Below, in pieces: positions 1-19,139 of a stretch of DNA of 33,052 nt. A program made the translations under genes and the position numbers. The stretch comes from a virus. The notes under the pieces are model-generated. The model did not search any database, had not been told where the DNA came from, and worked only from the letters and a program-made list of their open reading frames with translations. The stretch is from the IMG/VR virus record IMGVR_UViG_3300045988_025843, positions 1-33,052 of that record, one strand, 5' to 3'. Positions within the stretch are counted from its first letter, which is position 1, and each line of letters begins with the position of its first letter.

Positions 1-99
1 AAACATTCCAAAGGACAGAAAGAAAGAAACAGCCCTTAGCCGAGACGCGGTAGCCGAAGCGGCAAAGAGATTTTACAAAAAATAACAAACAAAAAAAAT
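1..99. repeat. Terminal overlap: 1-99 is identical to 32954-33052 (circular closure or assembly k-mer overlap)
   Basis: Base-by-base comparison of both window ends shows an exact 99-nt match running to both edges. Positions 1-85 repeat the 3' end of the protease/scaffold CDS, with its stop codon at 83-85. Confidence 0.95.
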
Positions 100-108
100 T
101 AAGAAATT

Positions 109-1053
109 ATGGCATTTACATTTTCAGACCTTAACAAACTGAATATTAACAGTTTGAACGAAGTTATCTCTTTGACCGTCGGTTTGGCTGGTGAGATTTC
201 TAACGGTATTACCGTGCTTAACGGTATCGCTAACAACACGCCCGTTGTTTCCCTTACAGCAGCCGACAAGGCGCTGCGTAAATCAGCGGGTTGTGGCGGT
301 AAATACTTCTACGATACAGTAACCGACAAGGTTAAGTATTACACACACGCACCTATCGAACTGCCTATAGAAATCTGTTTGCAATCTTTGTGGGGTAAAA
401 TGGTGGCACGCGGTATTAACCTCGAAGACGATTTTTCTGCAACCGATTTGGCAGGCTTCATTCAGTCCGAAGTATTGAAGGTGTTGGAAGCTGACTTGTT
501 GCGTCTCGCGTGGTTAGATGGCGACGTTAAGGCAGATGCTACGGGCTACGGTATCTTTACACGCGGCGGTATTATCAAGCAGTTTAAAGATAGCAGAGAG
601 ACCGAAAACGTTTTGAAGCTCGACACAGAAGGCGTTCTTGCTGCACTTCGTGGAGCTATCGACGCACAACGCCCAGATACACTCGACACCTCGGAGTTCT
701 TCGTAACGTCTAACGTTATGCGCCTTTATAAGAACCTTTTGCAGGATAGAGATAACAGTGCTGCACAAAGTGACATTGTAGATGGCAAACCCGTTTACTT
801 CTTCGAGGGGTATAAGATTAACGAACTTCGCCACGTGTCTAACGCTGCCTTGGTTGACGGTAATACACAGGCTTTCGTAGCATTCACACCAAAGGACAAC
901 ATTCAGATTGCCTTGGAGGGTAGCTCTACTAACATTGCACCGTTCATCCAAGACGCGAAAAGCCGTAACTACTACTCACAGACCTTGTTCGCGGCTGATG
1001 CTATGTTGGTAGCACCCGAGAAAATGCAAATGTGGTTACTTGCTTCTGTGTAA
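109..1053 (+). CDS. Major capsid protein (HK97-fold, lambda gpE-like by recollection)
   Basis: This 314-aa ORF lies directly downstream of the protease/scaffold gene across the circular junction. C-terminal strings (DGNTQAF, LFAADAMLVAPEKM) recall gpE-type coat proteins. It is followed by a very strong intrinsic terminator, as expected for a highly expressed gene. The family call is from memory. Confidence 0.65.
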   Translation: MAFTFSDLNKLNINSLNEVISLTVGLAGEISNGITVLNGIANNTPVVSLTAADKALRKSAGCGGKYFYDTVTDKVKYYTHAPIELPIEICLQSLWGKMVARGINLEDDFSATDLAGFIQSEVLKVLEADLLRLAWLDGDVKADATGYGIFTRGGIIKQFKDSRETENVLKLDTEGVLAALRGAIDAQRPDTLDTSEFFVTSNVMRLYKNLLQDRDNSAAQSDIVDGKPVYFFEGYKINELRHVSNAALVDGNTQAFVAFTPKDNIQIALEGSSTNIAPFIQDAKSRNYYSQTLFAADAMLVAPEKMQMWLLASV

Positions 1054-1073
1054 TGAAAATTAGTATTAACAAT

Positions 1074-1108
1074 AAAAGGGGTTGGGATATTAACCCAGCC
1101 CCTTTTTC
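1074..1108 (+). terminator. Rho-independent terminator after the capsid gene
   Basis: A 9-bp GC-rich stem pairs GGGGTTGGG (1078-1086) with CCCAGCCCC (1094-1102), including one G-U pair. The loop is 7 nt, a T5 run lies at 1103-1107, and an A-run precedes the stem. Confidence 0.85.
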
Positions 1109-1120
1109 ATTTTATATAAT

Positions 1121-1633
1121 ATGGCAAAAACTTGTTTAAATAAACTTTCGAGTAACATCCTACAATCTTGCAGCATTACGCAGGTGGGGCTTAAAGACAT
1201 ATATCTGATGCACATAGAGGATGTTACTTTGGTTTCCGATGGTAAGATAGTTTCGGGTATAACCTTTGCCCCTGGTGCGAAAAGCTACAAAGTGGAAGGA
1301 TATAAACAAAACTTACAGTACACCGCAACCCTTAAAACAACGGACGCTTCTGCGAGGTTGAACACCTCGGTGACTTTTAAGATGCCCGCCGACGGTCCTA
1401 CAATGTCTACACTCGCAAATGGTAAATTTTATGTGATGGTACAATATCCGCACATAACTGCCGGGATTGTGGGTGTTCAATGCCCTTTAGAGTGTTCGGC
1501 AATGGAGTTCGACAGCAACGCAAATGCAGCACTTGTAACGGTTACATTGTCCGACCCGGAAGGTTCGGCAGGAAACGCACACATGTTGTGTTATAATGCG
1601 GTTCGCGATTCAATAATCTCTAAATCAGTTTAA
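1121..1633 (+). CDS. Virion-module paralog 1 of 3 (function unknown; tail-tube-sized)
   Basis: 170 aa. It shares an N-terminal MA-x-C...C pattern and a PGAK-Y-V block (APGAKSYKVEG) with the next two ORFs. It is tightly packed after the capsid gene. Confidence 0.8.
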   Translation: MAKTCLNKLSSNILQSCSITQVGLKDIYLMHIEDVTLVSDGKIVSGITFAPGAKSYKVEGYKQNLQYTATLKTTDASARLNTSVTFKMPADGPTMSTLANGKFYVMVQYPHITAGIVGVQCPLECSAMEFDSNANAALVTVTLSDPEGSAGNAHMLCYNAVRDSIISKSV

Positions 1634-1635
1634 TT

Positions 1636-2178
1636 ATGGCATGTATATCAAAATTAGCAAACGCAATTGCTTATAATTGCGACACGGGCGCTACTGGTTT
1701 AGTCAGCGCGTTGATTATTAATAAAGCGGATATCGCGAGTTTTACCCTGGACAGTGCAGGCGGCGCAGTTATGGCTATTAATTTAGTTCCCGGTGCTAAA
1801 GCGTATAGGGTTGACACCGTTAAACGCTCCCTTGTTGTGTCGAAGAGTTTGAAGGTTAACGATGGTGCACCGAATGCGTTCACTCACACCGCCACCATTA
1901 CAGACACGACAAACGTCACGGTAGGTACGCATGTCAGCTTTACTAAAGCTATATCTAACGGCTCGTTTGTTATTTTATATAAGCCCGTAGGCGCATCACA
2001 CGCCAGCGTAGTCGGGCTGTATTATGGCATGCGTGCGACAGCATTTGACCAAAGCAGCCACGATAATGGTTCTTGGACTACCGTAACGATTGAGACGCCC
2101 GAAAACGTTATTGGCGAAGATAATCTTAGCTTGGTTGGGAATACCTACGATGCAATGTACGCAGCGGCAGCAGTTTAA
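1636..2178 (+). CDS. Virion-module paralog 2 of 3
   Basis: 180 aa. It begins MACISKL..NC and carries DIASFTLD and VPGAKAYRVD, which are collinear with paralogs 1 and 3. The gap to the upstream gene is 2 nt. Confidence 0.8.
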   Translation: MACISKLANAIAYNCDTGATGLVSALIINKADIASFTLDSAGGAVMAINLVPGAKAYRVDTVKRSLVVSKSLKVNDGAPNAFTHTATITDTTNVTVGTHVSFTKAISNGSFVILYKPVGASHASVVGLYYGMRATAFDQSSHDNGSWTTVTIETPENVIGEDNLSLVGNTYDAMYAAAAV

Positions 2179-2204
2179 CTAATTAAAAGAAAGGAAAAAA
2201 TAAT

Positions 2205-2780
2205 ATGGCATGTATTGGAAATGTAGCCGCGAGTACGGCTATGCCTTGCGGAGCACCAGCGTCGGCAGATATGGGCAGACCCGTATCGGCAAAGATTTTA
2301 AACGCTTCTGACATAGCGAGTTTTACGGTGGACAAAGGAACGGCTATTATTACACGAAAGCCCGGTGCCATGGGCTACAGTGTAACCGCTATTAATAATG
2401 CTCTCACCGTCTCGGTGGGTCTTAAATCGCAGGACCTTATGCCCGGTGCTTACGATGTATCAATTACATTTAAGAACTTTAGCGTGGCACAAACAGAGGT
2501 TACATCTCTCCCGATGGGGGTGGTGAACGGTCTGTCACGCGCAGAAATCGTAATTGCAGTGGACCACGGGAACGGTAAAATTAGGGTGTACGGTTTGGGC
2601 GCTCCGTTGGTTTGTACTGAACTTGTGGGGGATTCTACGGCAAGCGAGTATTTTACATTCACTTATGGCGTCGAGGATTGGCAAGTAGGTACGACTATTC
2701 ACAGGATGGAACCGGCAGCTTATGACGCGTTATCCACACCAACACCAACACCAACACCAGCACCAGCACCAGGATCATAA
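2205..2780 (+). CDS. Virion-module paralog 3 of 3 with a C-terminal Pro/Thr/Ala tail
   Basis: 191 aa. It begins MACIGNV..PC and carries DIASFTVD and KPGAMGYSVT. It ends in TPTPTPTPAPAPGS, encoded by the hexanucleotide repeat at 2736-2771, followed by a double stop TAATAA. Confidence 0.8.
   Translation: MACIGNVAASTAMPCGAPASADMGRPVSAKILNASDIASFTVDKGTAIITRKPGAMGYSVTAINNALTVSVGLKSQDLMPGAYDVSITFKNFSVAQTEVTSLPMGVVNGLSRAEIVIAVDHGNGKIRVYGLGAPLVCTELVGDSTASEYFTFTYGVEDWQVGTTIHRMEPAAYDALSTPTPTPTPAPAPGS
2736..2771 (+). repeat. Hexanucleotide tandem repeat (ACACCA)x4 (GCACCA)x2
   Basis: Read directly from the sequence. It encodes the TPTPTPTPAPAP tail of paralog 3. Confidence 0.95.
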
Positions 2781-2795
2781 TAAATCAAAAAGAAA

Positions 2796-3152
2796 ATGGC
2801 AAAAGAAAAAACAAATACTACGGGGCAGGGTGAAAGCGCTGCACCCGTTGTTGTTGAACCGAAGGTTGCAACATTACAAGAGAAGTTGGATACGTATTAC
2901 ACAATGACCGGGCTAAAACTTGACCCTAATTGCCACGTGGATATGGAATATTTATCTTTGTGGTATGAAACGAAGTATCTGACAAAGGTGGTTTACAGAT
3001 GGGCAATGAAGCCCGAGGCGCGTATCGTGCATTACGTCGATGGTGTCGTTTACAAGCCCGCAAACATGACGGACGAAATAGCCGAACGACTTATGAAGGA
3101 GAACCCGGCTTACGCCGATTGCTTCGTAGAAATCAATAAAGAGGAGGTTTAA
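2796..3152 (+). CDS. Hypothetical protein (virion module)
   Basis: 118-aa ORF in the same frame as paralog 3 and 15 nt downstream of it. It is tightly coupled to the next gene. Confidence 0.7.
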   Translation: MAKEKTNTTGQGESAAPVVVEPKVATLQEKLDTYYTMTGLKLDPNCHVDMEYLSLWYETKYLTKVVYRWAMKPEARIVHYVDGVVYKPANMTDEIAERLMKENPAYADCFVEINKEEV

Positions 3153-3154
3153 AT

Positions 3155-4324
3155 ATGATAGGTTACAGACGTTTCGCGCTTGTTGTCGAAAAGGCGCTTA
3201 AGTTGTCCGCTAACACGGGCGATAAGATTATTAACTACGGTGACGGCAACTTATATCCGCAGGAAATAGCCGAGCTAATATACGCTTCAAAGACAGCCAC
3301 AGCCGCAGTTGAGAAAATGACCGAAAACATTATTTGCGAAGGGTTCAAAAACAAGGATTTCGCGGCGATAACAAACGGGAACGGCTGTAACATGGACGAC
3401 GTTTTAGAGGCTACGGCAAACGATGTTGCACGTTTTAGGGGCTGGGCTTGGATAATACAGTATGGATTGACACCCGAAGGCTACAAGCCCCGAAACGTGT
3501 ACAACGTTCCGTTTGAATATGTCCGTGCCGAGATGAACGACAACTATTTGAAAGACCCCACCATAAAGAGATGGCGCGTTTTCAATAACTGGGATAGACA
3601 GAACGTCAAAGCAACAAGCAGTGCGCAGAACTCCACAGTATATCATACCTTTGACCCGGAAAATTTCGCATCAGAGGTTGAGGAGTGCGGCGGTATTGAA
3701 AACCATAAGGGGCAGCTATTATACGTGAACCTGGGAACAACCCGACCGTACCCCCTTAGCACGTTCCATTCGGTACGAAACGAGATGGGTGCGGAGGACA
3801 AGAACGGTAAATACGTTAACCGTACTTTGGGCAGGGGTTTCCACATGTGTAGCATCGTGTCGCACGGTGATTTCGAGTCCGAGCAGGCACAACAAGAATT
3901 CCGCGATACGTTAGCCGAGATGATGGGTAGCGAGAACGCTGGCTCCGTGCTTACCGTAAGGGACGAGAACGTAGCCACGGACAAACCGTTTATCAAGGTA
4001 GACCAGTTAGGCAGTCCTATAGATAGGGAGCTTTACAAGGCTTATGTGGAACCCCTTAGAAAGGATATTGCGATAGCGGCTTATAACATCCCGTTACCCC
4101 TTATTGACAGTTCGCTGATGACCTACTCAAACGCCTCGGGCGAGGTCATAAAGGAACTGCAAAAGGTCTATCGCAATAGCTTGCAGAAGATACGTCAACG
4201 CATTTCACGCGAGTTGTACCAAGTGTTCGGGGTTGACCCGTCAGTTACAGAAATTAATAATAAATTTGAAGAAGATGGCAAACCTAAAAGCATACCCGGT
4301 AGCACAGTTCCGCCAGCTGTTTGA
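3155..4324 (+). CDS. Putative portal protein (tentative)
   Basis: At 389 aa it is the only head-module protein of portal-like size that has no other assignment. The N-terminal segment (GNLYPQEIAELIYASKTATAAVEKMTENI) resembles the N-terminal region of HK97/SPP1-type portals. It is not adjacent to terL, so the call is weak. Confidence 0.4.
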   Translation: MIGYRRFALVVEKALKLSANTGDKIINYGDGNLYPQEIAELIYASKTATAAVEKMTENIICEGFKNKDFAAITNGNGCNMDDVLEATANDVARFRGWAWIIQYGLTPEGYKPRNVYNVPFEYVRAEMNDNYLKDPTIKRWRVFNNWDRQNVKATSSAQNSTVYHTFDPENFASEVEECGGIENHKGQLLYVNLGTTRPYPLSTFHSVRNEMGAEDKNGKYVNRTLGRGFHMCSIVSHGDFESEQAQQEFRDTLAEMMGSENAGSVLTVRDENVATDKPFIKVDQLGSPIDRELYKAYVEPLRKDIAIAAYNIPLPLIDSSLMTYSNASGEVIKELQKVYRNSLQKIRQRISRELYQVFGVDPSVTEINNKFEEDGKPKSIPGSTVPPAV

Positions 4325-4718
4325 AATAGCGACGGACGTTAAAGGCAACAAGATAGAAAAGGCGTTCTCGGAGGCAGACCTACTCGACATATTGCCGCAG
4401 ATTGGTTGCATGTACGATGCCGTACCCGATAAATATATCTCGGACGGGTCTAACTTCGCAGGACTTGAAAAGGTTATTTGTTATTACGCGTTCGCGCGGT
4501 ATTTGCAGATAGCAGACCAAAACAGTACGAGCACGGGTATGAAGATTCAGACATACGGCGGCTCGGTAGTCGTTCCAGATACAAGCAAGGTTAAGAGGTT
4601 TGAAGCCGAACGGGGCAAGGCAGACCTTTTTATAGAGCCGTTAATTTGCCAAATGAAGGCGGACGGGTTTATAAAGGCATGCACAGTATCGAACACCCGT
4701 ATAGGGCTAATCAAGTGA
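4275..4718 (+). CDS. Hypothetical protein (start uncertain: 4233 or 4275)
   Basis: The ORF is open from 4233. The ATG at 4275 (MANLKAY...) reduces the overlap with the upstream gene to 50 nt. No domain was recognised. Confidence 0.6.
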   Translation: MANLKAYPVAQFRQLFEIATDVKGNKIEKAFSEADLLDILPQIGCMYDAVPDKYISDGSNFAGLEKVICYYAFARYLQIADQNSTSTGMKIQTYGGSVVVPDTSKVKRFEAERGKADLFIEPLICQMKADGFIKACTVSNTRIGLIK

Positions 4719-5194
4719 TAGAACAATTAGAGACCTATTTCCGCACGTTTTTTGCTGTGACCGTTCTTGCAGTAGTTACGGATATACGGGACCTTATATT
4801 TTTAGTGGTTATCGTTACCGCGTTGAACTGGCTGGTAGGTTATTTGGCAGACAGGGCGAAAGGAAAGCCCTATAAGCACAAAAAGACTATGCAGGCGGTT
4901 AAGGAGTTGTTTTTAACGAATGCAATTCTTTTCTTTGTAGCACTAACATGTGATATGTTGGAGCCTGGGATAGATTATCAGCTTTTAGTTAAGGCACTCA
5001 CGGGTATATTCCTTATTATATACGCGCGTAACATAACAAGAAACCTTAGGGTAGTACAGCCGGGAAATGAATTCGTGAAGGTGCTAAACAGCATAGCGAA
5101 TAGCAAGTATTTCCAACTTAAGAGAAAGATTAAGGACGGCGAATTTGAAACACCCTTAGAAGAAAAGGAGAAAGAAGATGGCGAACAGCAGTAA
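4646..5194 (+). CDS. Holin-like multi-pass membrane protein (start uncertain)
   Basis: Three or more hydrophobic segments are present (FFAVTVLAVVT.., LIFLVVIVTALNWLVGYL, AILFFVALTCDML, ALTGIFLIIYA), with a charged C-terminus. It lies immediately upstream of the endolysin and overlaps it. Alternative in-frame starts are the ATG at 4679 and the GTG at 4715, which overlaps the upstream TGA. Confidence 0.6.
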   Translation: MPNEGGRVYKGMHSIEHPYRANQVIEQLETYFRTFFAVTVLAVVTDIRDLIFLVVIVTALNWLVGYLADRAKGKPYKHKKTMQAVKELFLTNAILFFVALTCDMLEPGIDYQLLVKALTGIFLIIYARNITRNLRVVQPGNEFVKVLNSIANSKYFQLKRKIKDGEFETPLEEKEKEDGEQQ

Positions 5195-5693
5195 ATTAGT
5201 ACCGTTCATCCTACAGTGGGAAGGTGGTTTCGTTAACGACCCGGACGACCTGGGGGGTGCAACAAACAAAGGTATCACCATAGGCACATTCACCGAATAC
5301 AAGAAGCGGAAGGGGCAAAAAGCCCCTACCGTCGACGACTTGAAAAACATATCTGATGCCGAATGGCACAATGTTTTTAAGTCCTTGTATTGGGATAGGT
5401 GGAAAGCCGACGAAATCAAAAACCAATCAGTAGCCAATATCTTAGTTGATTGGGTTTGGGCTTCGGGGTCGCACGGTATAAAGCGCCCACAACGTCTTTT
5501 AGGCGTGAAGGCGGACGGAATTGTAGGTAAACAGACCATTGCAGCCGTTAACGCTATGGACGCGGCTACGCTCTTTAAAATGATTAAAGACGATAGGGCA
5601 AAGTTCATCGATGAAATATGCAAGGCGAGACCCAAAAACGAGAAATACCGTAAAGGTTGGATGAACCGTATTAATGCGATACGCTATGAATAA
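5178..5693 (+). CDS. Endolysin: GH108-type lysozyme with a PG_binding_3-like C-terminal domain
   Basis: The N-terminal signature ILQWEGGFVNDPDDLGGATNKGIT matches the GH108 EGG..D..D.GG.T..GI motif. The C-terminal LLGVKADGIVGKQTIAAVN is typical of the associated peptidoglycan-binding domain. Confidence 0.85.
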   Translation: MANSSKLVPFILQWEGGFVNDPDDLGGATNKGITIGTFTEYKKRKGQKAPTVDDLKNISDAEWHNVFKSLYWDRWKADEIKNQSVANILVDWVWASGSHGIKRPQRLLGVKADGIVGKQTIAAVNAMDAATLFKMIKDDRAKFIDEICKARPKNEKYRKGWMNRINAIRYE

Positions 5694-6264
5694 ACTGCAA
5701 AAGATAATTATAGACTTTGCGGTCCTTATGGTGCTGTTTGGTGCGGTAACCAAGATGGTAGACACCATAAGGAAGCAAAGAGCCGAAATAGGACGTTTAG
5801 AACGTAACGTTGAGGCGATGAACGATGCACAGATAGAGTACAAAACAAAGCTCGGAGATGCAGCAGTGAAGCGTAAAGCTTTAGAGATGGCGCACAAGGA
5901 GCTAAAGAAAACGAACGCAGACCTATATAAAGAGGTGGACGCGCTTAATGTCCGGGTGAAAGATGCGTTATCGGCGACCCGTACCGTTACCAAGACCGTA
6001 ATAAAGGAGGTTGTGCGTACCGATACGGTAGCTGGCGAGTCGATAGCAGAATACCGGGACGCATGGAATACGATACAAGCAAGGGTTAAACGGGATAGCA
6101 CGGAATTAAGCTACCAAGGTAGGGACACGATAACGGGCGTTATCACAGTTCGGAAGAAAAAGTTCTTGTTTTTCAGATGGGGGGTCAAGGCTATAGAGCA
6201 CGACATGTCAAACAAAAACCCCAAAACAAAGATAGATATAGACATAGCGGTAAAGCTAAAATAA
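5674..6264 (+). CDS. Membrane-anchored coiled-coil protein (i-spanin-like; alternative start 5686)
   Basis: It has an N-terminal TM segment (IIIDFAVLMVLFGAV) followed by a long charged heptad-like region. It is the last gene of the lysis cassette. No partner lipoprotein was found nearby. Confidence 0.5.
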   Translation: MRYAMNKLQKIIIDFAVLMVLFGAVTKMVDTIRKQRAEIGRLERNVEAMNDAQIEYKTKLGDAAVKRKALEMAHKELKKTNADLYKEVDALNVRVKDALSATRTVTKTVIKEVVRTDTVAGESIAEYRDAWNTIQARVKRDSTELSYQGRDTITGVITVRKKKFLFFRWGVKAIEHDMSNKNPKTKIDIDIAVKLK

Positions 6265-6271
6265 TTAGGAG

Positions 6272-6301
6272 ATGGAGGGCTGTTAACAGTTCTCCATTTT
6301 T
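6272..6301 (+). terminator. Rho-independent terminator ending the late/lysis operon
   Basis: An 11-bp stem pairs ATGGAGGGCTG (6272-6282) with CAGTTCTCCAT (6287-6297), including two G-U pairs. The loop is TTAA and a T-run follows to 6301. Confidence 0.8.
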
Positions 6302-6318: not shown

Positions 6319-6538
6319 CACAGCCTGCACAGTAGAAAAGTAGGTCTGTGCAGGTCTCTGTGCAGTCTAACTCCTTATATTATAATACATTATATGTAAA
6401 TGCACAGTAAGCACAGTAAAAAGGGGGTAAAACATTATTCTGGAGAAAATAGCATTCACCACTATAGAACGGGCTGTAAAAACCACTATATTCTATATTA
6501 AAGTTTAGAAATTTAGGTGTGTTTCTGTGCTGTGCAGG
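6319..6538. repeat. Element X copy 1: CTGTGCAG/CTGCACAG octamer cluster, AT-rich core and hairpin
   Basis: CACAG lies at 6319-6323 and CTGCACAG at 6325-6332. CTGTGCAG lies at 6346-6353 and 6358-6365 (12-bp period). An AT-rich stretch with TATAAT follows. CACAG recurs at 6403-6407 and 6412-6416. A hairpin pairs TATAGAA (6463-6469) with TTCTATA (6491-6497). CTGTGC/CTGTGCAG closes the element at 6525-6537. The layout is collinear with 22688-22892. Confidence 0.9.
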
Positions 6539-6627: not shown

Positions 6628-6659
6628 GATACAACCTATTGTCATTTGCCGTATCTTTG
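6628..6659 (+). promoter_or_regulatory. Promoter of ncRNA locus A (ACAAC element plus -7 box TATCTTTG)
   Basis: TATCTTTG at 6652-6659 matches the Bacteroidota -7 consensus TAnnTTTG. GATACAAC starts exactly 24 nt upstream, the same spacing as in six other promoters in this genome. Confidence 0.7.
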
Positions 6660-6665
6660 TAATGT

Positions 6666-6872
6666 CAAAAGGAAACAAGGTTGTTCTTTACTGAAACTAA
6701 GAACATGATACCCTTAAAAGGAAAGTTTGAAAAGTGAATGGGATTCAAACACCGGGCTACCCAAAGACAAACAAAAAACTAAGAGGTTGCTTTTTACCAA
6801 AACTAAGAGCACGATACCCGAAAGGGAAAGTTTGAAAAGTGAAAGGGATTCAAACACCGAATAGTTTTTTTT
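6666..6872 (+). ncRNA. Tandem two-hairpin structured RNA, locus A (2 units of about 105 nt)
   Basis: Unit 1: GGT (6679-6681), stem 6682-6688/6699-6705, then ACC (6710-6712); hairpin 2 pairs GTTTGAA (6725-6731) with TTCAAAC (6744-6750). Unit 2: stem 6788-6794/6805-6811; hairpin 2 pairs 6830-6836 with 6849-6855 and is followed by a T8 run (6865-6872). There is no ORF. Stems are supported by compensatory changes between the four copies. The 5' end is inferred from the promoter. Confidence 0.65.
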
Positions 6873-6972: not shown

Positions 6973-7197
6973 ATGAAAGCAATTGATTTAATTTTCAGAG
7001 AAACGATGACCGAGGGTCAATTCGAGATGAAGAGCCACGTATTAGTATTTATAGACGAGGCAGGCAACGAGTATAGCGATACTTTTTCAGAGGTACGCCA
7101 TAACGGAAGATTCGAAGCATACCAATACAACGGTATGGAATACCAGCACATGCAGGACCTTTTAGAAGCTATTTTCTTAAATAGTGTTAACAAGTGA
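6973..7197 (+). CDS. Hypothetical early protein
   Basis: 74-aa ORF, the first gene after ncRNA locus A. No motif was recognised. Confidence 0.6.
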   Translation: MKAIDLIFRETMTEGQFEMKSHVLVFIDEAGNEYSDTFSEVRHNGRFEAYQYNGMEYQHMQDLLEAIFLNSVNK

Positions 7198-7227
7198 ACC
7201 AACGTATTAGCAAAAGCGTTATATTTG
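7196..7227 (+). promoter_or_regulatory. Early-class promoter cassette (GAACCAAC-N16-TATATTTG)
   Basis: GAACCAAC lies at 7196-7203 and the -7 box TATATTTG at 7220-7227. The conserved leader CATCAACAATTTAAAAAG follows, then the ATG at 7254. Confidence 0.7.
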
Positions 7228-7253
7228 CATCAACAATTTAAAAAGATAAAGCT

Positions 7254-7511
7254 ATGGAAGAACAAAAGTTTATTATCGACGAAGTGAAAAAGCATTTGCA
7301 GGCGAGAGCGAGGAAGAACAAATGCCGAGTTATTGATGCAGCGCAGGAAATGCCGACGTTTGAGGGATTTATACTCCCTTACTACGCCTCTACAATGGAA
7401 GGAGCGAAATACCCGGTAAACGTAGAAGAAATGTATATCTACTGTGACGAGTGGGAAGAGTTCTATAACGAGACAGTAGCCAAGGTCGCACAAGCCATTC
7501 TGGAAGCCTAA
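7254..7511 (+). CDS. Hypothetical early protein
   Basis: 85-aa ORF behind its own promoter cassette. Confidence 0.65.
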   Translation: MEEQKFIIDEVKKHLQARARKNKCRVIDAAQEMPTFEGFILPYYASTMEGAKYPVNVEEMYIYCDEWEEFYNETVAKVAQAILEA

Positions 7512-7561
7512 CAAATCAAGGAAGCGTAAATTAGTTATTCACCATATAAAAAGAAAAGAAA

Positions 7562-8131
7562 ATGAAGATTACACCGTTAACAATCGATTTTGACGTTACA
7601 AACGCACAAGAAGTAGAGTTTGTAAATGACCTAATGAACCGTCTATTTGGAAGTGCACCGCTTAAGGCTACGGCAGCGCCTACAGAAAGCCCCGTAAACA
7701 GTACAAGCGTACCGACGTTTAGTGAACCGACACAGACCGCTGCGCCCGTTCAAGAATTTAAGAAGGAAGCCACAGCGGTAGCTATTGCAGAGGAAACAAT
7801 AGTAGACGCCATCGCGGAAGTGAAGAAGGAAATGAAAAAGCCCGAAAAGGTAGCAAAGCCAAAGACCGTAAAGGAAGCCCCACAAGCGACGATTGAACCC
7901 GAACCCGTACAAGCTCCCCTCGAAGAGGAGAAAGCCCCGGAGAAAGCCTCAAACGAGCCTCTAACGGCGAAGGACATGCAGGCGTTCATGATTGATATGA
8001 TGAAAACCGGGAAAATCACTCGTCCACAATTAACGGATATCATGCTTGAGTTCGGCGGCGCGTCCCTTATGCGTATCAAGCCCGAGAAGTACGAGCTATT
8101 GAAACAACGTATTGAAACCTATAACGATTAA
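7562..8131 (+). CDS. Hypothetical protein with a long Pro/Glu/Lys/Ala-rich central region
   Basis: 189 aa with structured-looking termini and a low-complexity centre (..KPEKVAKPKTVKEAPQATIEPEPVQAPLEEEKAPEK..). It lies directly upstream of the nuclease gene. Confidence 0.65.
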   Translation: MKITPLTIDFDVTNAQEVEFVNDLMNRLFGSAPLKATAAPTESPVNSTSVPTFSEPTQTAAPVQEFKKEATAVAIAEETIVDAIAEVKKEMKKPEKVAKPKTVKEAPQATIEPEPVQAPLEEEKAPEKASNEPLTAKDMQAFMIDMMKTGKITRPQLTDIMLEFGGASLMRIKPEKYELLKQRIETYND

Positions 8132-8136
8132 AAAGA

Positions 8137-9315
8137 ATGAAAGTACAAGTAGACCACACAAGTAGGGCACACGCCCTACTTTCCCCGAGCAGCTCGCACC
8201 GCTGGCTTAACTGCACACCTTCCGCGCGATTGGAGGAACCGTATGAGAGCACGAGTAGCGCGGCATCAGAAGAGGGAACGGTAGCGCATGAGTTGGCAGA
8301 GTATGCGATAGAAAAGTATTTATCCGGGGAATACCTACCGTTATTGGACGAATTGCCCGTACCCGACGAAATACGTAACAACAAATACTATAGTTCAGAA
8401 ATGGAACACTACATAACCGACTACGTTTGCTACGTGTGTGACATATACGAGTTGGAGGAAGGCGCTAAAATGAGTATAGAACGGAAGTTCGACCTAACAA
8501 CATACGTTCCCGAGTGTTTTGGTAGCTGCGACTGCGACATAGTAGGCGAAACGGTTCTAAATATCATAGACCTAAAATACGGAAAGGGCGTACAAGTGGA
8601 CGCTGATTGGAATAGCCAATTAATGATGTACGCTATCGGGGTGCTTAACTCCTTAGAACCATCGCACCGCGCAAAGATTGAAACGGTACGCATGCACATT
8701 GCACAAGTACGGTTAGGCAATTACTCGGTATTCGAGACGTCCGCACGGGACTTGACCCACTGGGCGATACACGTACTACGCCCCACCGCCGAAAAGGCAT
8801 GGGCAGGACAAGGGGAAACCAAAGTAGGCAGCCATTGTAAGTTCTGCAAGTTCAAAGCGCAATGCAGGGCACAGAAAGATGCTTTAGTTAGCGAGTTCGA
8901 GGCACACGGGGACGCCAAGGCGTTAACTCTTGACGAGATAGGCGATATACTAAGCAAGTCCGATATGTTCACCGACTGGCTGGCATCGGTCAAGACTTTC
9001 GCAATGCAAGCCGCCACAAGGGGCGAAAAGGTCAAGGGGTGGAAGCTCGTAGAGGGAAGGTCAGCACGTGTAATAAACGACACGGAAACAGCTATAGAAC
9101 GCCTAAAAGCTTTAGGTTTCTCAACCGAGGACATAACTAACAGCAAACTGAAAGGTATCGGAGACCTGGAACGGCTCGTAGGTAAGAAACCGCTCGCCGC
9201 TGCGCTTGACGGGCTGATAGTCAAGCCAAAAGGGATGCCAACATTAGCCCCGGAAAGCGATAAGCGCGAGGCGCTAAGCCCTACTATTGACGACTTCGAG
9301 AAATTAAATTCATAA
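8137..9315 (+). CDS. PD-(D/E)XK nuclease with a Cas4-like Cys cluster (DUF2800-type)
   Basis: It carries CDCDIVG...IIDLKYGKG (a D...D/E-x-K core) and C-terminal CKFCKFKAQC plus an N-terminal Cys, as in Cas4/RecB-family 4Fe-4S nucleases. At 392 aa and positioned before the DUF2815-like SSB, it fits a known phage replication module. Confidence 0.75.
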   Translation: MKVQVDHTSRAHALLSPSSSHRWLNCTPSARLEEPYESTSSAASEEGTVAHELAEYAIEKYLSGEYLPLLDELPVPDEIRNNKYYSSEMEHYITDYVCYVCDIYELEEGAKMSIERKFDLTTYVPECFGSCDCDIVGETVLNIIDLKYGKGVQVDADWNSQLMMYAIGVLNSLEPSHRAKIETVRMHIAQVRLGNYSVFETSARDLTHWAIHVLRPTAEKAWAGQGETKVGSHCKFCKFKAQCRAQKDALVSEFEAHGDAKALTLDEIGDILSKSDMFTDWLASVKTFAMQAATRGEKVKGWKLVEGRSARVINDTETAIERLKALGFSTEDITNSKLKGIGDLERLVGKKPLAAALDGLIVKPKGMPTLAPESDKREALSPTIDDFEKLNS

Positions 9316-9330
9316 AAGAAGTTAACGAAA

Positions 9331-9362
9331 GAACCAACCTATCAGATAAAGCGTTATATTTG
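9331..9362 (+). promoter_or_regulatory. Early-class promoter cassette (GAACCAAC-N16-TATATTTG)
   Basis: GAACCAAC lies at 9331-9338 and TATATTTG at 9355-9362, followed by the leader GTTATCAAATTAAAAAC. GTTAACGAAAGAACCAAC is identical to the copy at 21089-21106. Confidence 0.7.
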
Positions 9363-9388
9363 CGTTATCAAATTAAAAACAAAACGAT

Positions 9389-9697
9389 ATGAAAAGTAAC
9401 AACGGTATCCTAACAGAGAAAGAGATTCAAGAAAGAACAAAGTTTTGGAGTAAAAAGCAGTTCCGCACATGGAGCAAGAAAGAACTTGAAAGAACCTCTA
9501 AATACATGCAAAATCTTTTGGTAGCCCTAAAGGAATTCAGTATGGACGAGATTAAGGCTATTAGAAAGTTAGACCGGTATGGCTTTGATTCATACTACAA
9601 AAATGACCCGAAGTATATCGTACGGATGGCAGACCAAAGAGACTTAGATTATGCTATTTTGATAGCGCCAAAAACTTTTAAAGTTAAACAAGGTTAA
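9389..9697 (+). CDS. Hypothetical protein
   Basis: 102-aa ORF behind a promoter cassette. Confidence 0.65.
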   Translation: MKSNNGILTEKEIQERTKFWSKKQFRTWSKKELERTSKYMQNLLVALKEFSMDEIKAIRKLDRYGFDSYYKNDPKYIVRMADQRDLDYAILIAPKTFKVKQG

Positions 9698-9702
9698 CAG
9701 AG

Positions 9703-9730
9703 TAAACAACCTATTTATTTGTTATCTTTG
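9703..9730 (+). promoter_or_regulatory. Promoter cassette variant (AAACAAC, 20-nt offset, -7 box TATCTTTG)
   Basis: TATCTTTG lies at 9723-9730, followed by the leader CACCATCAAATTAAAAAC. The upstream TAAACAAC starts at 9703, an offset of 20 nt rather than 24. Confidence 0.6.
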
Positions 9731-9793
9731 CACCATCAAATTAAAAACGGAACGCCCGAACCGATTAGAGGGCAAAAACAAAAATTGTAGAAT

Positions 9794-10327
9794 ATGAAAG
9801 CAATGATTAAGAACGTGAGATTGAGTTATGTTAGATTGTTTGAAGCGCAACAAGTCAACGGACAAGGAGAAGCAAGTTACAGTGTATGCTTATTGATTCC
9901 GAAGGATAGCCCGGAAGTCCCAAAGATTAAAGCAGCTATCGAAGCCGAGTTTTCAACTCTTAAGGCACGTTATCCGAAGTTGAACGGCAAAGACCCGAAG
10001 GTATGGGCTAACCCATTAAGAGATGGGGATGCTGAGAAAGACGGCGCAGAGTATCAAGGTTGCTACTTTATCAACGCAAAGCGTAAAGAGAAGCAAGGCG
10101 CGCCTATCGTAATCGACGGTAAGAAACAGTACATCACAGACCCGAATGAGGTTTATAGCGGTTCTTGGGGCAACGTAGCCGTATCTTTCTATCCTTATGA
10201 GTTTACCGGGAAATACGGTATCGGTGTAGGTTTGAACGGTGTGCAGAAGACAAGAGACGATGAAAGACTGGATGGTGGTATAAGCCTTGACGATTTTGAT
10301 TTCGAAGACGACGACCTTTTCAACTAA
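9794..10327 (+). CDS. ssDNA-binding protein (DUF2815 / T7 gp2.5-like)
   Basis: The N-terminus MKAMIKNVRLSYVRLFEA is characteristic of DUF2815 phage SSBs. The acidic C-terminal tail (DDFDFEDDDLFN) is typical of gp2.5-type SSBs. Confidence 0.75.
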   Translation: MKAMIKNVRLSYVRLFEAQQVNGQGEASYSVCLLIPKDSPEVPKIKAAIEAEFSTLKARYPKLNGKDPKVWANPLRDGDAEKDGAEYQGCYFINAKRKEKQGAPIVIDGKKQYITDPNEVYSGSWGNVAVSFYPYEFTGKYGIGVGLNGVQKTRDDERLDGGISLDDFDFEDDDLFN

Positions 10328-10353
10328 CAATTCAATTAGACAGAATAATAACC

Positions 10354-10372
10354 GGGCGGTGTAATGCCGCCC
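10354..10372 (+). other. GC-rich hairpin after the SSB gene (no downstream T-run)
   Basis: GGGCGG (10354-10359) pairs with CCGCCC (10367-10372) around a 7-nt loop. It is followed by an A-run rather than a T-run, so it is not a canonical + strand terminator. Confidence 0.35.
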
Positions 10373-10389
10373 AAAAATAAAAAGCAAAA

Positions 10390-11490
10390 ATGGGGAAATA
10401 CGATTCGTACGTAAACGAAGAAGGTGTTAGGATTTCAAAGGTAACGGGAAAACCGTTGAAAAAGTATAATAAGGTCAACAAGGCATACTGGGCAGCTCGT
10501 GAAGGCAAAGCATTAGTAGGGGTACAGCAACCTATAGTAGAGGTAGACCCGTTGATAGAGGAGCTTAAAAGCTATTACAACGAAGAAGAATTAAGGGGTA
10601 TTATCGGTTTGAAGAAAGACGCGCCGCCCGTCGAACTGGTACACATCACACCGAAGAAAAAGACATCACTCGACGAGGGAAACACTGGGTTTCTTATTGC
10701 ATCAGACTGGCATGCCGACGAAGTAGTAAAGGCATCTACGGTATTGGGCAAAAACGAATATAACAAGGGTATCGCAGAAAAGCGTATCACTAATTTCTTT
10801 GCGAATGCCGCCTATATGATAAAGAAAAAGCCAGTAGATAACTTGGTTATCGGTTTGATTGGCGATATGATAGGCGGCTACATTCACCCCGAACTCGAAC
10901 AGACAAATAGCATGCCCCCGATGCGCGGTGTTAACTTCGTTAAGAGCCTAATTATTTCCGGGCTTAAGTATCTGCACGACCAACTGCCGGAACTTGAAAA
11001 GATAACCGTCATCGGTATTTGCGGAAACCATTCAAGAACTACAAAAAAGATGCAGTTTAGCAACGGTTTCGAGATGAATTATGAATATTTCATGTACAAG
11101 GACATCGAACACAACCTAACACTTATGGGGCTGACAAAATTCAGTTTCATTATCCCCGAAAGTGAATTTGCTTATATCGACGTGTACGGAAAGAAAGTGT
11201 TATTCGCACACGGGCATCAATTCCGCACGGCTGGCGGTATCGGAGGCATTTACCCGTCAATGATGCGCTGGTACGCAAAGATGAACCAAACAATACAAAT
11301 TGATAAAGCCTTTATCGGGCATTACCACCAAATGATATATACTAAAGAGGTTTGCGTAAACGGTTCTTTGAAGGGTTTCGACGCGTTCGCAATGGGGCAC
11401 GGACTGGCATATGAGGAACCGCAACAAACATACGTTATTCTGAACGAGAAGCGAGGCTTTATTTTCTACTCGCCTATTTTTGCAGATTAA
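10390..11490 (+). CDS. Calcineurin-like metallophosphoesterase (Mre11/SbcD-like)
   Basis: The ordered motifs SDWHAD, GDMIGG, GNHSR, HGHQF and GHYH match the phosphoesterase signature D-x-H / GD / GNH / H / GH. Confidence 0.8.
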   Translation: MGKYDSYVNEEGVRISKVTGKPLKKYNKVNKAYWAAREGKALVGVQQPIVEVDPLIEELKSYYNEEELRGIIGLKKDAPPVELVHITPKKKTSLDEGNTGFLIASDWHADEVVKASTVLGKNEYNKGIAEKRITNFFANAAYMIKKKPVDNLVIGLIGDMIGGYIHPELEQTNSMPPMRGVNFVKSLIISGLKYLHDQLPELEKITVIGICGNHSRTTKKMQFSNGFEMNYEYFMYKDIEHNLTLMGLTKFSFIIPESEFAYIDVYGKKVLFAHGHQFRTAGGIGGIYPSMMRWYAKMNQTIQIDKAFIGHYHQMIYTKEVCVNGSLKGFDAFAMGHGLAYEEPQQTYVILNEKRGFIFYSPIFAD

Positions 11491-11494
11491 GTTA

Positions 11495-11546
11495 AAAAGG
11501 CTACTAATTGTTAAATAAATGCAATCAGTAGCCTTTCTTCTTGTTT
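11495..11546 (+). terminator. Rho-independent terminator after the phosphoesterase gene
   Basis: AGGCTACT (11498-11505) pairs with AGTAGCCT (11527-11534), flanked by an A-run upstream and the T-rich tract TTCTTCTTGTTT downstream. Confidence 0.7.
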
Positions 11547-11550
11547 ATTA

Positions 11551-11633
11551 AAAACATTGTCGTACCTTTGCCGTTATAATGGTATTAACAGTTAAAACAT
11601 TGTCGTACCTTTGCCGTTATAATGGTATTAACA
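11551..11633 (+). repeat. Exact 40-nt direct repeat x2 (43-nt period), each copy carrying TACCTTTG; tandem promoter candidates for the polymerase operon
   Basis: 11551-11590 is identical to 11594-11633 (AAAACATTGTCGTACCTTTGCCGTTATAATGGTATTAACA). The partial string TTAAAACA at 11635-11642 resembles the TTAAAACA that spans the junction into copy 2. TACCTTTG lies at 11563-11570 and 11606-11613, and each copy also contains TATAAT. Confidence 0.9.
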
Positions 11634-11649
11634 ATTAAAACAATGAGTT

Positions 11650-13668
11650 ATGAGACATTTATTCATCGACTTTGAAACGTATTCCGAAACGGACATTAAA
11701 AGCGCTGGTAATTATAAATACTGTGAGGACATGAATTTTGAAATTCTCCTTTGCGGATACATGTGGGACACAGATACGGAGGTTTCAATTATCGACTTAA
11801 CGAAGCCCGGAGGACTGGACGAGTTTAACGAGCTGTTCCTATATGTACAGAACAACGAGGACGTTGTGATAGTCGCGCACAACGCTACATTTGAGCGTAT
11901 CTGTTTGCGTGAATATGGGTTTGACATAAGCCCTATGCGCTTTTTCTGTACGGCTAACATGTCATTGTATTGTGGTATGCCGGCATCATTGGAAGCGGTA
12001 TCCAATATTCTGAACCTGGACGATAAGAAGAAAGGCACGGGCAAAAACCTTATCCGTTACTTTTCTATCCCTTGCAAACCCACCAAAACAAACGGAGGGC
12101 GCACACGTAATATGCCGGATCACGCCCCCGAGGACTGGAAAGAGTTCATAGATTACTTGCGATATGATGTGCTTTCTGAAAAGGAGATATTCGGTAAGTT
12201 GTCCCGGTTTGAATTCCCGGAAGAAGAGCAGCGAATTTATGCAGCTGACCAACGAATAAACGATTATGGCATATTGGCAGACCTTGATTTAGCACACGCC
12301 GCGCAAGATATGGACGAAGAATATAAGGCACGTCTTACTGAAAGAGCCGAAAAGGAATACGGGTTAAGCTCCTTAAAGTCCATGCCTCAGCTTAAGGGCT
12401 TCATTAAAGAGCGTACGGGCGTGGTTATCGATTCCCTCAATAAGAATAGCATCGAAGAGGTGGTAAAGACCGTAGCGAGCCTTAAAAACGTTACTGACGA
12501 GGATAAGCAAGCAGTGTTAGACGTTATCGACCTACGTAGGGAGATAGGCAAAACGTCGAACGCCAAGTACACCGCCATACTCGCAAGCGCCGGGAGGGGC
12601 AACCGTATCAGAGGTTTGTTCCGTTATTACGGGGCGAACCGTACCGGGCGATGGGCTGGGCGATTGGTTCAACTACAGAACCTACCGCAAAACCACATTG
12701 AAGACCTGGACGGGGCACGAGAACTGGCAAAGATGCACGATCTGGATATGATGGAAGTTATATACGACAAACCGACGCATATACTATCGCAGCTTATACG
12801 TACCGCGTTTATCGCCCCCGAAGGGTACACGTTCGCTGTAGCTGACTTCTCGGCGATTGAGGCACGTGTAATTGCCTGGGTTGCTAATGAGCAATGGCGT
12901 TTAGACTTATTTAACGACCCGAAGGCTGATATATATTGCGCTTCTGCGTCTAAAATGTTCGGTGTCCCGGTACACAAGGGCGACGACTTAAGGCAGCGCG
13001 GTAAGGTAGCGGAGCTTGCACTCGGATACGGCGGCGGCGTTAACGCCCTTACCACAATGGATATTAAAAAAGCGTTAGCAGATGAAGAAAAACCTCAAAT
13101 ATTGTCAAAATGGAGAGAAGCTAATAAAAAAATAGTATTTTTGTGGCGTTCGTTAGAAGACAGCGCAAAAAGATGTATCGGAACAAGGCGTGAACAAGTC
13201 TATAAAATAGACGATGTTTCAAGTATTATATTTCGATATGAGAGCGGCGCAATGACTATTGAACTACCAAGCGGTAGAAAGCTGTTCTACCCGTCTGCAA
13301 GAATGGGAAAACGTACTATCGAGGGCGTTAACGGCTCGTTTGAGGTTGAGGATATATCCTACATGGGTCAAGACCAAACCTCCGGGAAATGGGTTAAGCT
13401 AAACACATACGGAGGCAAGTTAACCGAGAACGTTGTGCAGGCGATAGCCCGTGACTTGCTGGCGAATGCGATTTTTAAGGTATTTGATTTAGGCTTTAAT
13501 ATCGTGTTGCATGTTCACGATGAAATAGCCGCCGAAATACCGAAGGATGGAAACGAAGAAAAGACGCTGCAAATAATGAGTGATGCCATGTGCAGCGCCC
13601 CGAGCTGGGCAAAGGGCATACCATTAAGAGCAGCAGGTTATATTACTGAATATTACAAAAAAGATTAA
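11650..13668 (+). CDS. Family A DNA polymerase with 3'-5' exonuclease domain
   Basis: The exonuclease motifs are FIDFETYS, HNATFE and YLRYDV. The polymerase motifs are A (FAVADFSAIEARV), B (RQRGKVAELALGYGGG) and C (VLHVHDEI). Confidence 0.9.
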   Translation: MRHLFIDFETYSETDIKSAGNYKYCEDMNFEILLCGYMWDTDTEVSIIDLTKPGGLDEFNELFLYVQNNEDVVIVAHNATFERICLREYGFDISPMRFFCTANMSLYCGMPASLEAVSNILNLDDKKKGTGKNLIRYFSIPCKPTKTNGGRTRNMPDHAPEDWKEFIDYLRYDVLSEKEIFGKLSRFEFPEEEQRIYAADQRINDYGILADLDLAHAAQDMDEEYKARLTERAEKEYGLSSLKSMPQLKGFIKERTGVVIDSLNKNSIEEVVKTVASLKNVTDEDKQAVLDVIDLRREIGKTSNAKYTAILASAGRGNRIRGLFRYYGANRTGRWAGRLVQLQNLPQNHIEDLDGARELAKMHDLDMMEVIYDKPTHILSQLIRTAFIAPEGYTFAVADFSAIEARVIAWVANEQWRLDLFNDPKADIYCASASKMFGVPVHKGDDLRQRGKVAELALGYGGGVNALTTMDIKKALADEEKPQILSKWREANKKIVFLWRSLEDSAKRCIGTRREQVYKIDDVSSIIFRYESGAMTIELPSGRKLFYPSARMGKRTIEGVNGSFEVEDISYMGQDQTSGKWVKLNTYGGKLTENVVQAIARDLLANAIFKVFDLGFNIVLHVHDEIAAEIPKDGNEEKTLQIMSDAMCSAPSWAKGIPLRAAGYITEYYKKD

Positions 13669-13672
13669 ATCT

Positions 13673-16111: not shown

Positions 16112-16202
16112 TAACAGAGAGGGGCGTAAAAGCCTCCAAATGTTAACTAACTGTTAACAGAATAACTAAATGAAATTTATCTCTTAAATGGTGTTAACGG
16201 AA

Positions 16203-16234
16203 TATACAACCTATCAGTATTTGCCGTATATTTG
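16203..16234 (+). promoter_or_regulatory. Promoter of ncRNA locus B (ACAAC element plus -7 box TATATTTG)
   Basis: TATACAAC starts at 16203 and TATATTTG lies at 16227-16234, a 24-nt offset. It is collinear with 6628-6659. Confidence 0.7.
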
Positions 16235-16240
16235 TAATGC

Positions 16241-16450
16241 CAAAAGGAAACAAGGTTATTCTTTACCGAAACTAAGAATACGAGACCCGCCCCAAAAGGA
16301 AAGATTAAAAAGTGAATGGAATTTAATCACCGGGTTTTCTTAAGACAAACAGAAAAAACTAAGAGGTTGCTTTTTACCAAAACTAAGAGCACGATACCCG
16401 AAAGGGAAAGTTTGAGAAGTGAAAGGGATTCAAACACCAAATAGTTTTTT
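16241..16450 (+). ncRNA. Tandem two-hairpin structured RNA, locus B (2 units)
   Basis: Unit 1: stem TATTCTT (16257-16263) pairs with AAGAATA (16274-16280); hairpin 2 pairs GATTAAA (16303-16309) with TTTAATC (16322-16328). Unit 2 (16361-16440) is nearly identical to locus A unit 2; its hairpin 2 pairs 16410-16416 with 16429-16435, followed by a T6 run (16445-16450). There is no ORF. Confidence 0.65.
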
Positions 16451-16529
16451 AAATAAAAAGGCAATAACGGTGAACCATTTCAAAGCTTCCGTTGTTCTTA
16501 TAGTATAACAATTTAAAAAACAAAAGATT

Positions 16530-16940: not shown

Positions 16941-16988
16941 AGAAGTGTTTTTGTTATTACAGCATATGCAATTTTAAAAAGAAAAATT

Positions 16989-17192
16989 ATGAAAAGTGGA
17001 AATTTTATCAGACTGGAATTCGTAGTTAAAGGTGAATTACAAGTGGAGTTTATCAACGTTGAACATGTATCGCGCATTATGCACGTGGAAGGCAAACCGT
17101 TTATTGGTATGCTGGGACAGACCTACACGCGCCAACTTACAGAAACGAGCATGAAGGACCTAATGGAGTACATTAACGTAGAAAGCAATTAA
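16989..17192 (+). CDS. Hypothetical protein
   Basis: 67-aa ORF preceded by an AATTTTAAAAAG-type leader. Confidence 0.55.
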   Translation: MKSGNFIRLEFVVKGELQVEFINVEHVSRIMHVEGKPFIGMLGQTYTRQLTETSMKDLMEYINVESN

Positions 17193-17193
17193 A

Positions 17194-18383: not shown

Positions 18384-18409
18384 CAGCAAATTAAAAAACA
18401 TAATTAAGT

Positions 18410-19129: not shown

Positions 19130-19139
19130 AACAGAAATC

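Follow-up and report, generated by a model that had tools for sequence, protein, structure and literature searches.

Two related repeat arrays in a Bacteroides phage genome

The window analysed here is the whole 33,052-nucleotide stretch of the IMG/VR virus record IMGVR_UViG_3300045988_025843 (positions 1 to 33,052), which covers almost all of the genome (~34 kb) of a Bacteroides uniformis siphovirus. The nearest deposited relatives are the phages C2_18_80S2P, EMB1/2 and the BU-series phages. All genes in the window are carried by the plus strand, and all features below are described on that strand. The gene order is structural and lysis genes (1-6264), a non-coding repeat array that we name X1 (6319-6538), an early/replication module (6973-22522), a twin array that we name X2 (22688-22892), and then terS/terL and more structural genes. 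X1 is at the late-to-early junction and X2 at the early-to-late junction, ~300 bp upstream of terS, at a distance of 16.4 kb from each other. We propose that X1 and X2 are probably twin origins of replication for the phage primase-helicase, because one residue of that protein changes in step with the repeated motif of the arrays across relatives. X is annotated in no deposited relative's record, nor is it mentioned in the one genome announcement consulted, and the remark of an earlier sequence-only reading that the element could not be assigned to any described phage element was a fair one.

X1 is composed of short sites with the core CACAG or its complement CTGTG (8 cores in X1), which we number S0 to S6. 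S0 (CACAG, 6319-6323) and S1 (CTGCACAG, 6325-6332) form a tandem pair in the sense orientation. After a 13-nt A-rich spacer (6333-6345), S2 (6346-6353) and S3 (6358-6365) are two antisense copies of CTGTGCAG with a 12-bp period, and form the left flank of an AT-rich core (6366-6402, 19% GC). This core, the putative DNA-unwinding region, includes a CTAACT box and the sequences TATAATA/TATTATA (TATAAT at 6381-6386). On its right flank are S4 (6402-6407) and S5 (6411-6416), a sense tandem of GCACAG sites, opposite in orientation to S2 and S3. S4 and S5 overlap two CACAGTAA repeats (6403-6419), followed by a GGGGGTAAAACATTATT box. Next comes an invariant box, GGGGGTAAAACATTATTCTGGAG at 6423-6445 (consensus RGGGGTAAAACATTATTYTGGAG; 22791-22813 in X2), then a variable region, then TTAAAGTTTAGAAA (~6498-6511), and last the antisense sites at 6516-6537, namely S6' (GTGTGT), S6a (CTGTGC, 6525-6530) and S6b (CTGTGCAG, 6530-6537). 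Every feature of X1 that the sequence-only reading had listed is found where it was placed or 1-2 nt away. The hairpin that it drew at 6463-6497 is weaker than suggested, no more than a 7-bp TATAGAA/TTCTATA pair closing a 21-nt loop; the region is better seen as a direct repeat of ACCACTATA (6458-6466 and 6482-6490).

X2 has ~80% identity to X1, in an alignment that begins shortly ahead of the first CACAG and ends with the last CTGTGCAG. Its iterons are at 22688, 22693-22700, 22714-22721, 22726-22733, 22771, 22779 and 22884-22891, and its AT core at 22734-22768 (17% GC). The region of X2 that matches the direct repeat of X1 forms a long hairpin with arms 22798-22826 and 22837-22865. X1 and X2 each have four of the octamers CTGTGCAG/CTGCACAG and the rest of the window has none, a total of eight for 0.45 expected, and none of 100 dinucleotide-preserving shuffles reaches eight; the confinement of the octamer to the two elements, noticed in the sequence-only reading, is borne out. 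X1 has 8 CACAG/CTGTG cores and X2 has 7, where the background gives 0.23 per 220 bp (Poisson P ~1.5e-10).

Within each element, one unit is duplicated: two sense sites in tandem, then a run of A residues, then two antisense sites in tandem. The left unit is the compact one (S0, S1, spacer, S2, S3), and S1 and S2 form a 9-bp inverted repeat (6324-6354 in X1, 22693-22721 in X2). The right unit carries an insert of ~100 bp, so that S4 and S5 are followed by the RGGGGTAAAACATTATTYTGGAG box, the variable hairpin or direct repeat, TTAAAGTTTAGAAA and the S6 sites. In most relatives, the S6 region is a 14-bp inverted copy of S4-S5. The AT core sits between the two units, and in X1, in X2 and in all relatives it is flanked by S2 and S3 on one side and by S4 and S5 on the other, in opposite orientations.

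The layout is conserved and the motif switches in concert

We searched IMG/VR both by DNA pattern and by flanking proteins, which resulted in 79 unique X copies in total. A narrow DNA pattern for Phocaeicola-type elements returned only 2 loci, and was replaced by protein-anchored searches. Two X copies are found at the same junctions in 13 of 13 GenBank relatives, and X1 is at its junction in ~47 IMG/VR contigs as well; dozens of IMG/VR contigs also have both copies. The search of related genomes for the array, which the sequence-only reading had called for, finds the two-copy layout kept in every relative examined, while the motif itself varies. All ~80 copies have one orientation and one position.

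Amongst the close relatives, we distinguish four types of motif. Type A is the majority motif, TGCACAG/CTGTGCA. Types C and D, TTACACAG and TGACACAG, retain the CACAG core. Type B, a minority, has a truly different core, TGACCAG/CTGGTCA, with some sites reading GCCCA/TGGGC. In type B genomes, GCACAG becomes GACCAG at S1, S3, S4, S5 and S6 in both copies; S0/S1 read GCCCAC/TGACCAG, and S4 and S5 are two GACCAG sites in all type B genomes. X1 and X2 share the motif type in each genome where both were seen, rare variants included. Gene conversion alone was considered as the source of this match. Similarity of the two copies within a genome compared to between genomes is 0.68 vs 0.57 for site columns and 0.58 vs 0.56 for the other columns. 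The within-genome excess is hardly seen outside the sites, which is suggestive that gene conversion alone is not behind the match.

More distant relatives that share this helicase have arrays built alike, with a motif particular to each lineage. Phocaeicola and OM05-12 phages have GTTCC/GGAAC arrays, again two per genome and at the same junctions. A group at 85% identity uses TGGCACAG, the B. thetaiotaomicron phage BT23 uses GGATAG, and BKO1-1 uses TGTAAA. Other parts of the array are shared more widely than the iterons. The CT(T)AACT box together with TATAATATAT..GTA is common to the X core and the Phocaeicola phage elements. The RGGGGTAAAACATTATTYTGGAG box is the most conserved block of X over the 79 unique copies and across all motif types, and it has relatives in the 85% group and in the Phocaeicola phages. 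Since the box stays unchanged between iteron types, it may serve as a second site of recognition, for instance by the helicase's invariant C-terminal domain or by a host factor.

Several observations on individual copies are worth recording. The AT core of X1-type copies has two alleles, TATTATAATAYATTATATGTAAAT and TATATCAACTACTTATMTATAMTT, among close relatives (L001, L072, L074, L092, L093, L033, L060 and others in our set); its composition and length are conserved, its sequence is not. Hybrid X elements are found in L196, L213 and L166 (IMG/VR contigs 020131, 021824), which have Q478 and CACAG inner sites together with B-like outer sites (S0 is GCCCAC or GCCCAG, and S3 is CTGGTCAC). These hybrids may have arisen by recombination, or constraint may be weaker at the outer sites. 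The linear record of Bacteroides phage BU2-2 (L002, PQ571282.1) starts and stops within X1, with an exact 141-bp terminal overlap that is most likely an artefact of assembly or circularisation and not a physical terminal repeat.

The motif is coupled to one residue of the primase-helicase

The primase-helicase gene (13673-16111) encodes 812 amino acids and is our proposed binder of X1 and X2. It has PHROG matches to DNA helicase/primase and a Pfam VapE-like domain at residues 481-698, and its residues 392-730 match PDB 7pds with an E-value of 2.9e-80. The 7pds structure is that of SaPI5 PriRep5, from a Staphylococcus aureus pathogenicity island (SaPI), in which a primase is fused to a self-loading initiator-helicase of the superfamily 3 (SF3) type (PMC9371898). 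The phage protein would accordingly belong to the PriRep5/VapE-like self-loading SF3 helicases.

Codon 478 of this gene (15104-15106) is CAG in the window, a Gln in the motif FHPVQEYL. To relate protein and motif, we used the helicase segment with 10-kb flanks as an anchor and collected 54 genomes that hold both the helicase and X. Codon 478 is CGG (Arg) in all four type B genomes and CAG (Gln) in the other 50. A scan of the helicase, DNA polymerase, two exonuclease and SNF2 genes covered ~3,900 variable columns, ~330 of them with an allele count of four, and nucleotide 15105 is the only column that is perfectly associated with the motif. The type B helicase genes are 6-9% apart from each other. 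They do not form a clade, they have no consistent mutual nearest neighbours, and their flanking synonymous sites differ. Divergent genes of this kind, without a clade or a shared haplotype, argue for specific coupling and against hitch-hiking.

A proteome-wide screen for motif-linked proteins finds no allele swaps, and Q478R is the sole type B-specific residue; type B proteins otherwise have alleles that are 76-100% identical in type A genomes. Among the proteins, the coupling with the array motif is confined to the primase-helicase, at residue 478. In the gene for the single-stranded DNA-binding protein SSB, a synonymous G-to-A change at the third codon position at window position 9838 is fixed in three type B genomes in a 20-genome alignment; it is probably a sampling effect.

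The association mostly extends to other lineages. In 8 of 9 lineages, Gln occurs with CTGT(G/A)C motifs, and Lys or Arg with TGG-type motifs. This pattern fits contacts that would place Gln on adenine and Arg or Lys on guanine, as far as can be judged by comparing sequences.

Another possibility is that X is a packaging or recombination element: a pac region for the small terminase, a recombination hotspot at module boundaries, or a segment resembling a miniature inverted-repeat transposable element (MITE) or an inverton between the 9-bp inverted repeats CCTGCACAG/CTGTGCAGG. X2 is indeed close to terS, EMB2 is reported to be a headful (pac) packager, the elements are exactly at the module junctions, and the terminal inverted repeats are ~183 nt apart. 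Against this, two pac sites 16 kb apart would halve the genome, and TerS, at 94-97% identity between motif types, has no residue specific to a type, by which we rejected the small terminase subunit as the binder. The window encodes no recombinase or transposase, and the constant orientation and position of the ~80 copies give no sign of inversion or mobility, by which an inverton or MITE was rejected too. We regard this group of explanations as very improbable. A mimic of a solitary CRISPR repeat was also considered and is not favoured.

The arrays lie between predicted transcription units

X1 comes directly after the intrinsic terminator of the late/lysis operon (6268-6301, a 15-pair stem followed by a T run), and X2 after that of the early operon (22604-22639, with 13-nt arms that are 100% complementary, followed by TTTTGTTT). 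Bacteroides promoters use TAnnTTTG. Downstream of X1, by ~115 nt, we find a conserved Bacteroides-type -7 promoter box, TATCTTTG (6652-6659). Downstream of X2, by ~110-140 nt, there is a conserved Bacteroides sigma-A-type promoter (23000-23032) with GGTTGG, a 20-nt spacer and TACCTTTG, which is invariant in 9 of 9 aligned genomes. The stretch of 110-135 nt between each X and its downstream promoter is conserved sequence. With a terminator upstream and a promoter downstream, each X would be located between transcription units, with no evident transcript over it, a placement derived from sequence motifs. The TATAAT of the core does not make a convincing sigma-70-type promoter: matches are weak (9/12) and none is in the core, and TAnnTTTG is not in the shared part of X, while it is present downstream. 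A mini open reading frame behind a GGGGGT "Shine-Dalgarno" was rejected as well. Its frame is not conserved, most X2-type copies hit a TGA after 8 codons, and the copy in the window has a 1-nt indel.

The regions beyond these promoters have features of their own. After the 23000-23032 promoter and upstream of terS is a leader of roughly 160 nt (23040-23199) with a conserved block, CTACTACTCGCGCATCTCTTTAAGAGACCGCGAGC, and a middle part of variable length among relatives. Downstream of the 6652 box, in the 5' region of the early operon, a non-coding module of ~105 nt is duplicated in tandem (6678-6754 and 6784-6859, 73-95% identical); most relatives have one copy, and in Phocaeicola phages a homolog comes after the primase-helicase gene and is repeated upstream of several early genes. 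As a structured RNA this module was rejected, with a fold z-score of -0.17.

The position of both X copies, 110-135 bp upstream of conserved sigma-A-type promoters, raises the possibility that X is an operator or enhancer, with repeats that bind a phage or host regulator (or an autoregulating helicase) to co-control the downstream early and late promoters. Inverted and direct repeats are typical for operators. We consider this unlikely. No repressor, activator, sigma factor or helix-turn-helix-type protein was detected among the early genes, and the primase-helicase is the only protein that covaries with the motif. A small co-evolving regulator was sought and rejected, with no DNA-binding domains in the small early open reading frames and no protein having type-specific residues or alleles beyond Q478R. 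The early region also has many further canonical promoters without repeats, and if the early and late operons were controlled identically, there would be no temporal order between them.

Covariation and strand bias of the inverted sites

The sequence-only reading had also offered an RNA-level alternative of mutually exclusive helices. In the form that we weighed, the plus strand of X would be transcribed, and the S1:S2 and S4S5:S6 helices (a domain of ~130 nt) would act as a leader, attenuator or antiterminator in the manner of HK022 putL/putR, as a determinant of RNA-RNA specificity in the manner of P4 CI RNA with seqA/seqC or of P1/P7 c4, or as a small stable RNA. There are resemblances to both groups. 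As with putL/putR, two paralogous elements head two operons or gene modules. As with P4 CI RNA and seqA/B/C, short complementary sequences vary in concert between relatives, which in that case are heteroimmune (P4, phiR73). The inverted arms also show compensatory changes (by RNAalifold and by pair counts), such that pairing at S1:S2 stands at 93% and both partners have changed in 4 of its 8 pairs. When the arms mismatch, they favour the pairs that would form on the plus strand, G·U over A·C, by 24:3 at S1:S2 and by 31:10 at S4:S6a, whereas non-nested pairings are balanced. The right half folds better on the plus strand, with a mean of -30.5 vs -25.9 kcal/mol, chiefly in X2-type copies.

The covariation does not single out any helix. 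Since one motif is common to all the sites, any sense site covaries with any antisense site to an equal degree, S3:S4 and S2:S5 cross pairings included, and we do not take covariation as proof of an RNA structure here. The interior of the right unit has no independent covariation, so a conserved structure inside it was rejected. Some phages have 2-3 tandem antisense sites (with a 9-12 bp period) for a single sense copy. In Rfam 15, the whole window has no matches at gathering thresholds and only chance-level ones at permissive thresholds (E >0.04), and neither a known RNA family nor a tRNA was found in it. Unlike put and CI RNA, which act downstream of promoters as RNA, X is placed after an intrinsic terminator and 110-135 nt upstream of a conserved host-type promoter, and no canonical Bacteroides promoter precedes the shared part or is located in it. 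The motif of X is tied to a replication protein, and an RNA element would leave this exclusive coupling to residue 478 unexplained. With no evident transcript, no Rfam match, tandem antisense sites and a covariation driven by the motif, we do not uphold the RNA-level reading and think it improbable, even if the G·U bias of S1:S2 on the plus strand leaves room for a role that the single strand may have.

X1 and X2 as candidate twin origins

The other reading offered from the sequence alone, that of protein-binding sites around an AT-rich core, is supported by the coupling of the iterons to residue 478, by the homology to PriRep5 and by a layout like that of PriRep5 origins. We favour twin iteron origins for the phage primase-helicase, or an origin and a partner similar to P4 crr, with a probability of about 0.7.

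In the mechanism that we propose, the octamers CTGTGCAG/CTGCACAG, with their CACAG core, would be the binding sites of the primase-helicase. By the paradigm of SaPI Rep and SF3 helicases, hexamers would assemble on the oppositely oriented sets of iterons, melt the AT-rich core and load themselves, and the fused primase would then prime synthesis. The two copies may be two origins, or one origin and a cis-acting partner with the same iterons, like P4 ori and crr. Residue 478 would help to read the variable bases of the iterons; the GGGGTAAAACATTATTYTGGAG box, which does not vary, may be recognised by a region of the protein that is likewise invariant, such as the C-terminal domain.

A narrower proposal is that Q478R, in the N-terminal collar tier, by itself retargets origin recognition from GCACAG to GACCAG iterons. 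This we advance as a tentative suggestion, at somewhat short of even odds. Residue 478 maps to the last part of the N-terminal tier, which adjoins the ATPase. In SaPI Reps it is the C-terminal winged helix that reads the iterons, and the N-terminal tier of PriRep5 is stated to have no known function (PMC9371898).

Several points weigh against the origin proposal, or against the part assigned to residue 478. The independent type B genomes are only four. The lineage BKO1-1 breaks the rule, having Lys with (A/G)TGTAAAG. Type D genomes have B-like outer sites S0 and S3 despite Q478, which indicates that not every site is constrained. In the column scan, the C-terminal winged-helix domain of the primase-helicase has no type-specific change, and residue 478 lies outside it, in the N-terminal tier, so that its direct contact with bases is putative. 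Binding, melting and initiation by the helicase at X1 and X2 are steps that we infer by analogy. Cumulative GC skew rises monotonically through both elements, so that composition gives no independent origin signal. X1 is 8.6 kb upstream and X2 7.6 kb downstream of codon 478, a mismatch in position because SaPI origins adjoin rep on its downstream side. Finally, the G·U excess at S1:S2 and S4:S6 would not be predicted for a purely duplex protein site; it suggests either that the plus strand is important as a single strand or hairpin, or that mutation is locally asymmetric.

Comparison with known origins

Phage P4 offers a case of a paired arrangement. Its ori and crr are separate cis regions several kb apart that have the same short iterons and both bind the alpha protein. 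X1 and X2 are similarly two separated regions with the same iterons for one primase-helicase. They differ in that ori and crr are unlike each other in architecture, while X1 and X2 are ~80% identical paralogs. The P4 initiator is also a fused primase and SF3 helicase (PMC2777425). Unlike in the phage protein studied here, the primase of alpha is of the DnaG type and its C-terminal winged helix reads type I iterons.

Other viruses share parts of the layout. The GAGGC pentamers of the SV40 large T antigen and the sites of papillomavirus E1 are inverted pairs by an AT tract and an imperfect palindrome, where two oppositely oriented self-loading SF3 hexamers are placed. These origins resemble X in their inverted pentamer or hexamer sites beside an AT-rich tract; in contrast to X, SF3 eukaryotic viruses use a dedicated origin-binding domain without a homolog here, and have a single origin per genome. 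The Bacillus phage SPP1, a pac-type siphovirus, has in oriL and oriR two distant regions with shared boxes and an AT-rich segment, served by one initiator, G38P. X1 and X2 are likewise two distant regions with the same repeated boxes and an AT-rich segment, but in SPP1 initiation falls to a distinct origin-binding protein, acting together with a helicase loader and a helicase of the DnaB type, and not to a self-loading primase-helicase.

SaPI origins can be compared with the individual array. Their iterons are 6-12 penta- or hexanucleotides, with at least two on each side of an AT-rich central region and in opposite directions, and the Rep helicase binds and melts the origin without accessory factors (PMC9371898). 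Each X has 7-8 short iterons (5-8 bp), an AT-rich centre and at least two oppositely pointing iterons per side, and the same genome encodes a cognate initiator-helicase homologous to PriRep5 with a fused primase. As in SaPIs, the iteron sequence and the initiator appear as matched specificity variants, although the residue that tracks the type is in the N-terminal tier, whereas in SaPIs specificity is in the C-terminal winged helix. SaPIs have one origin directly downstream of rep. X instead has two copies at module junctions, the end of X1 being 7.1 kb upstream and the start of X2 6.6 kb downstream of the helicase gene, and a scan of the window finds no iteron cluster adjoining that gene. The outer iteron pairs of X make nested inverted arrays and there is an insert of ~100 bp with the invariant box, neither of which is as in SaPIs. 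The host element is also of another kind, a lytic Bacteroides siphovirus and not a staphylococcal island. Relative to SaPI, P4 and SF3-virus origins, X is new in having twin copies where modules join, in nesting its inverted arrays, and in that the residue linked to specificity is not part of the winged helix.

Implications

If Q478R does retarget recognition, the N-terminal tier would read iteron bases, and the co-switch of Q478R with GCACAG-to-GACCAG iterons would be a natural specificity swap for self-loading SF3 primase-helicases, pointing to a role for the N-terminal tier that the structural study of PriRep5 left open. The plus-strand G·U bias would then fit a single-stranded or hairpin form of the iteron pairs that is recognised or that acts in melting. 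For annotation, the arrays suggest a rule in which the architecture is conserved and the motif is free: twin lineage-specific repeat arrays around an AT core at module junctions. In genetic tools for Bacteroides, matched variants of origin and helicase could be used as orthogonal parts of replicons.

In Bacteroidales phages, origins of replication are apparently uncharacterised, and X1 and X2 with the primase-helicase would provide a concrete assignment of origin and initiator for a large family of gut siphoviruses in Bacteroides, Phocaeicola and related genera. If Q478R retargets recognition, close gut phages would fall into orthogonal groups of replicon specificity, each with matched twin origins. 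Matched variants of origin and helicase might also explain replication incompatibility or independence among co-infecting gut phages.

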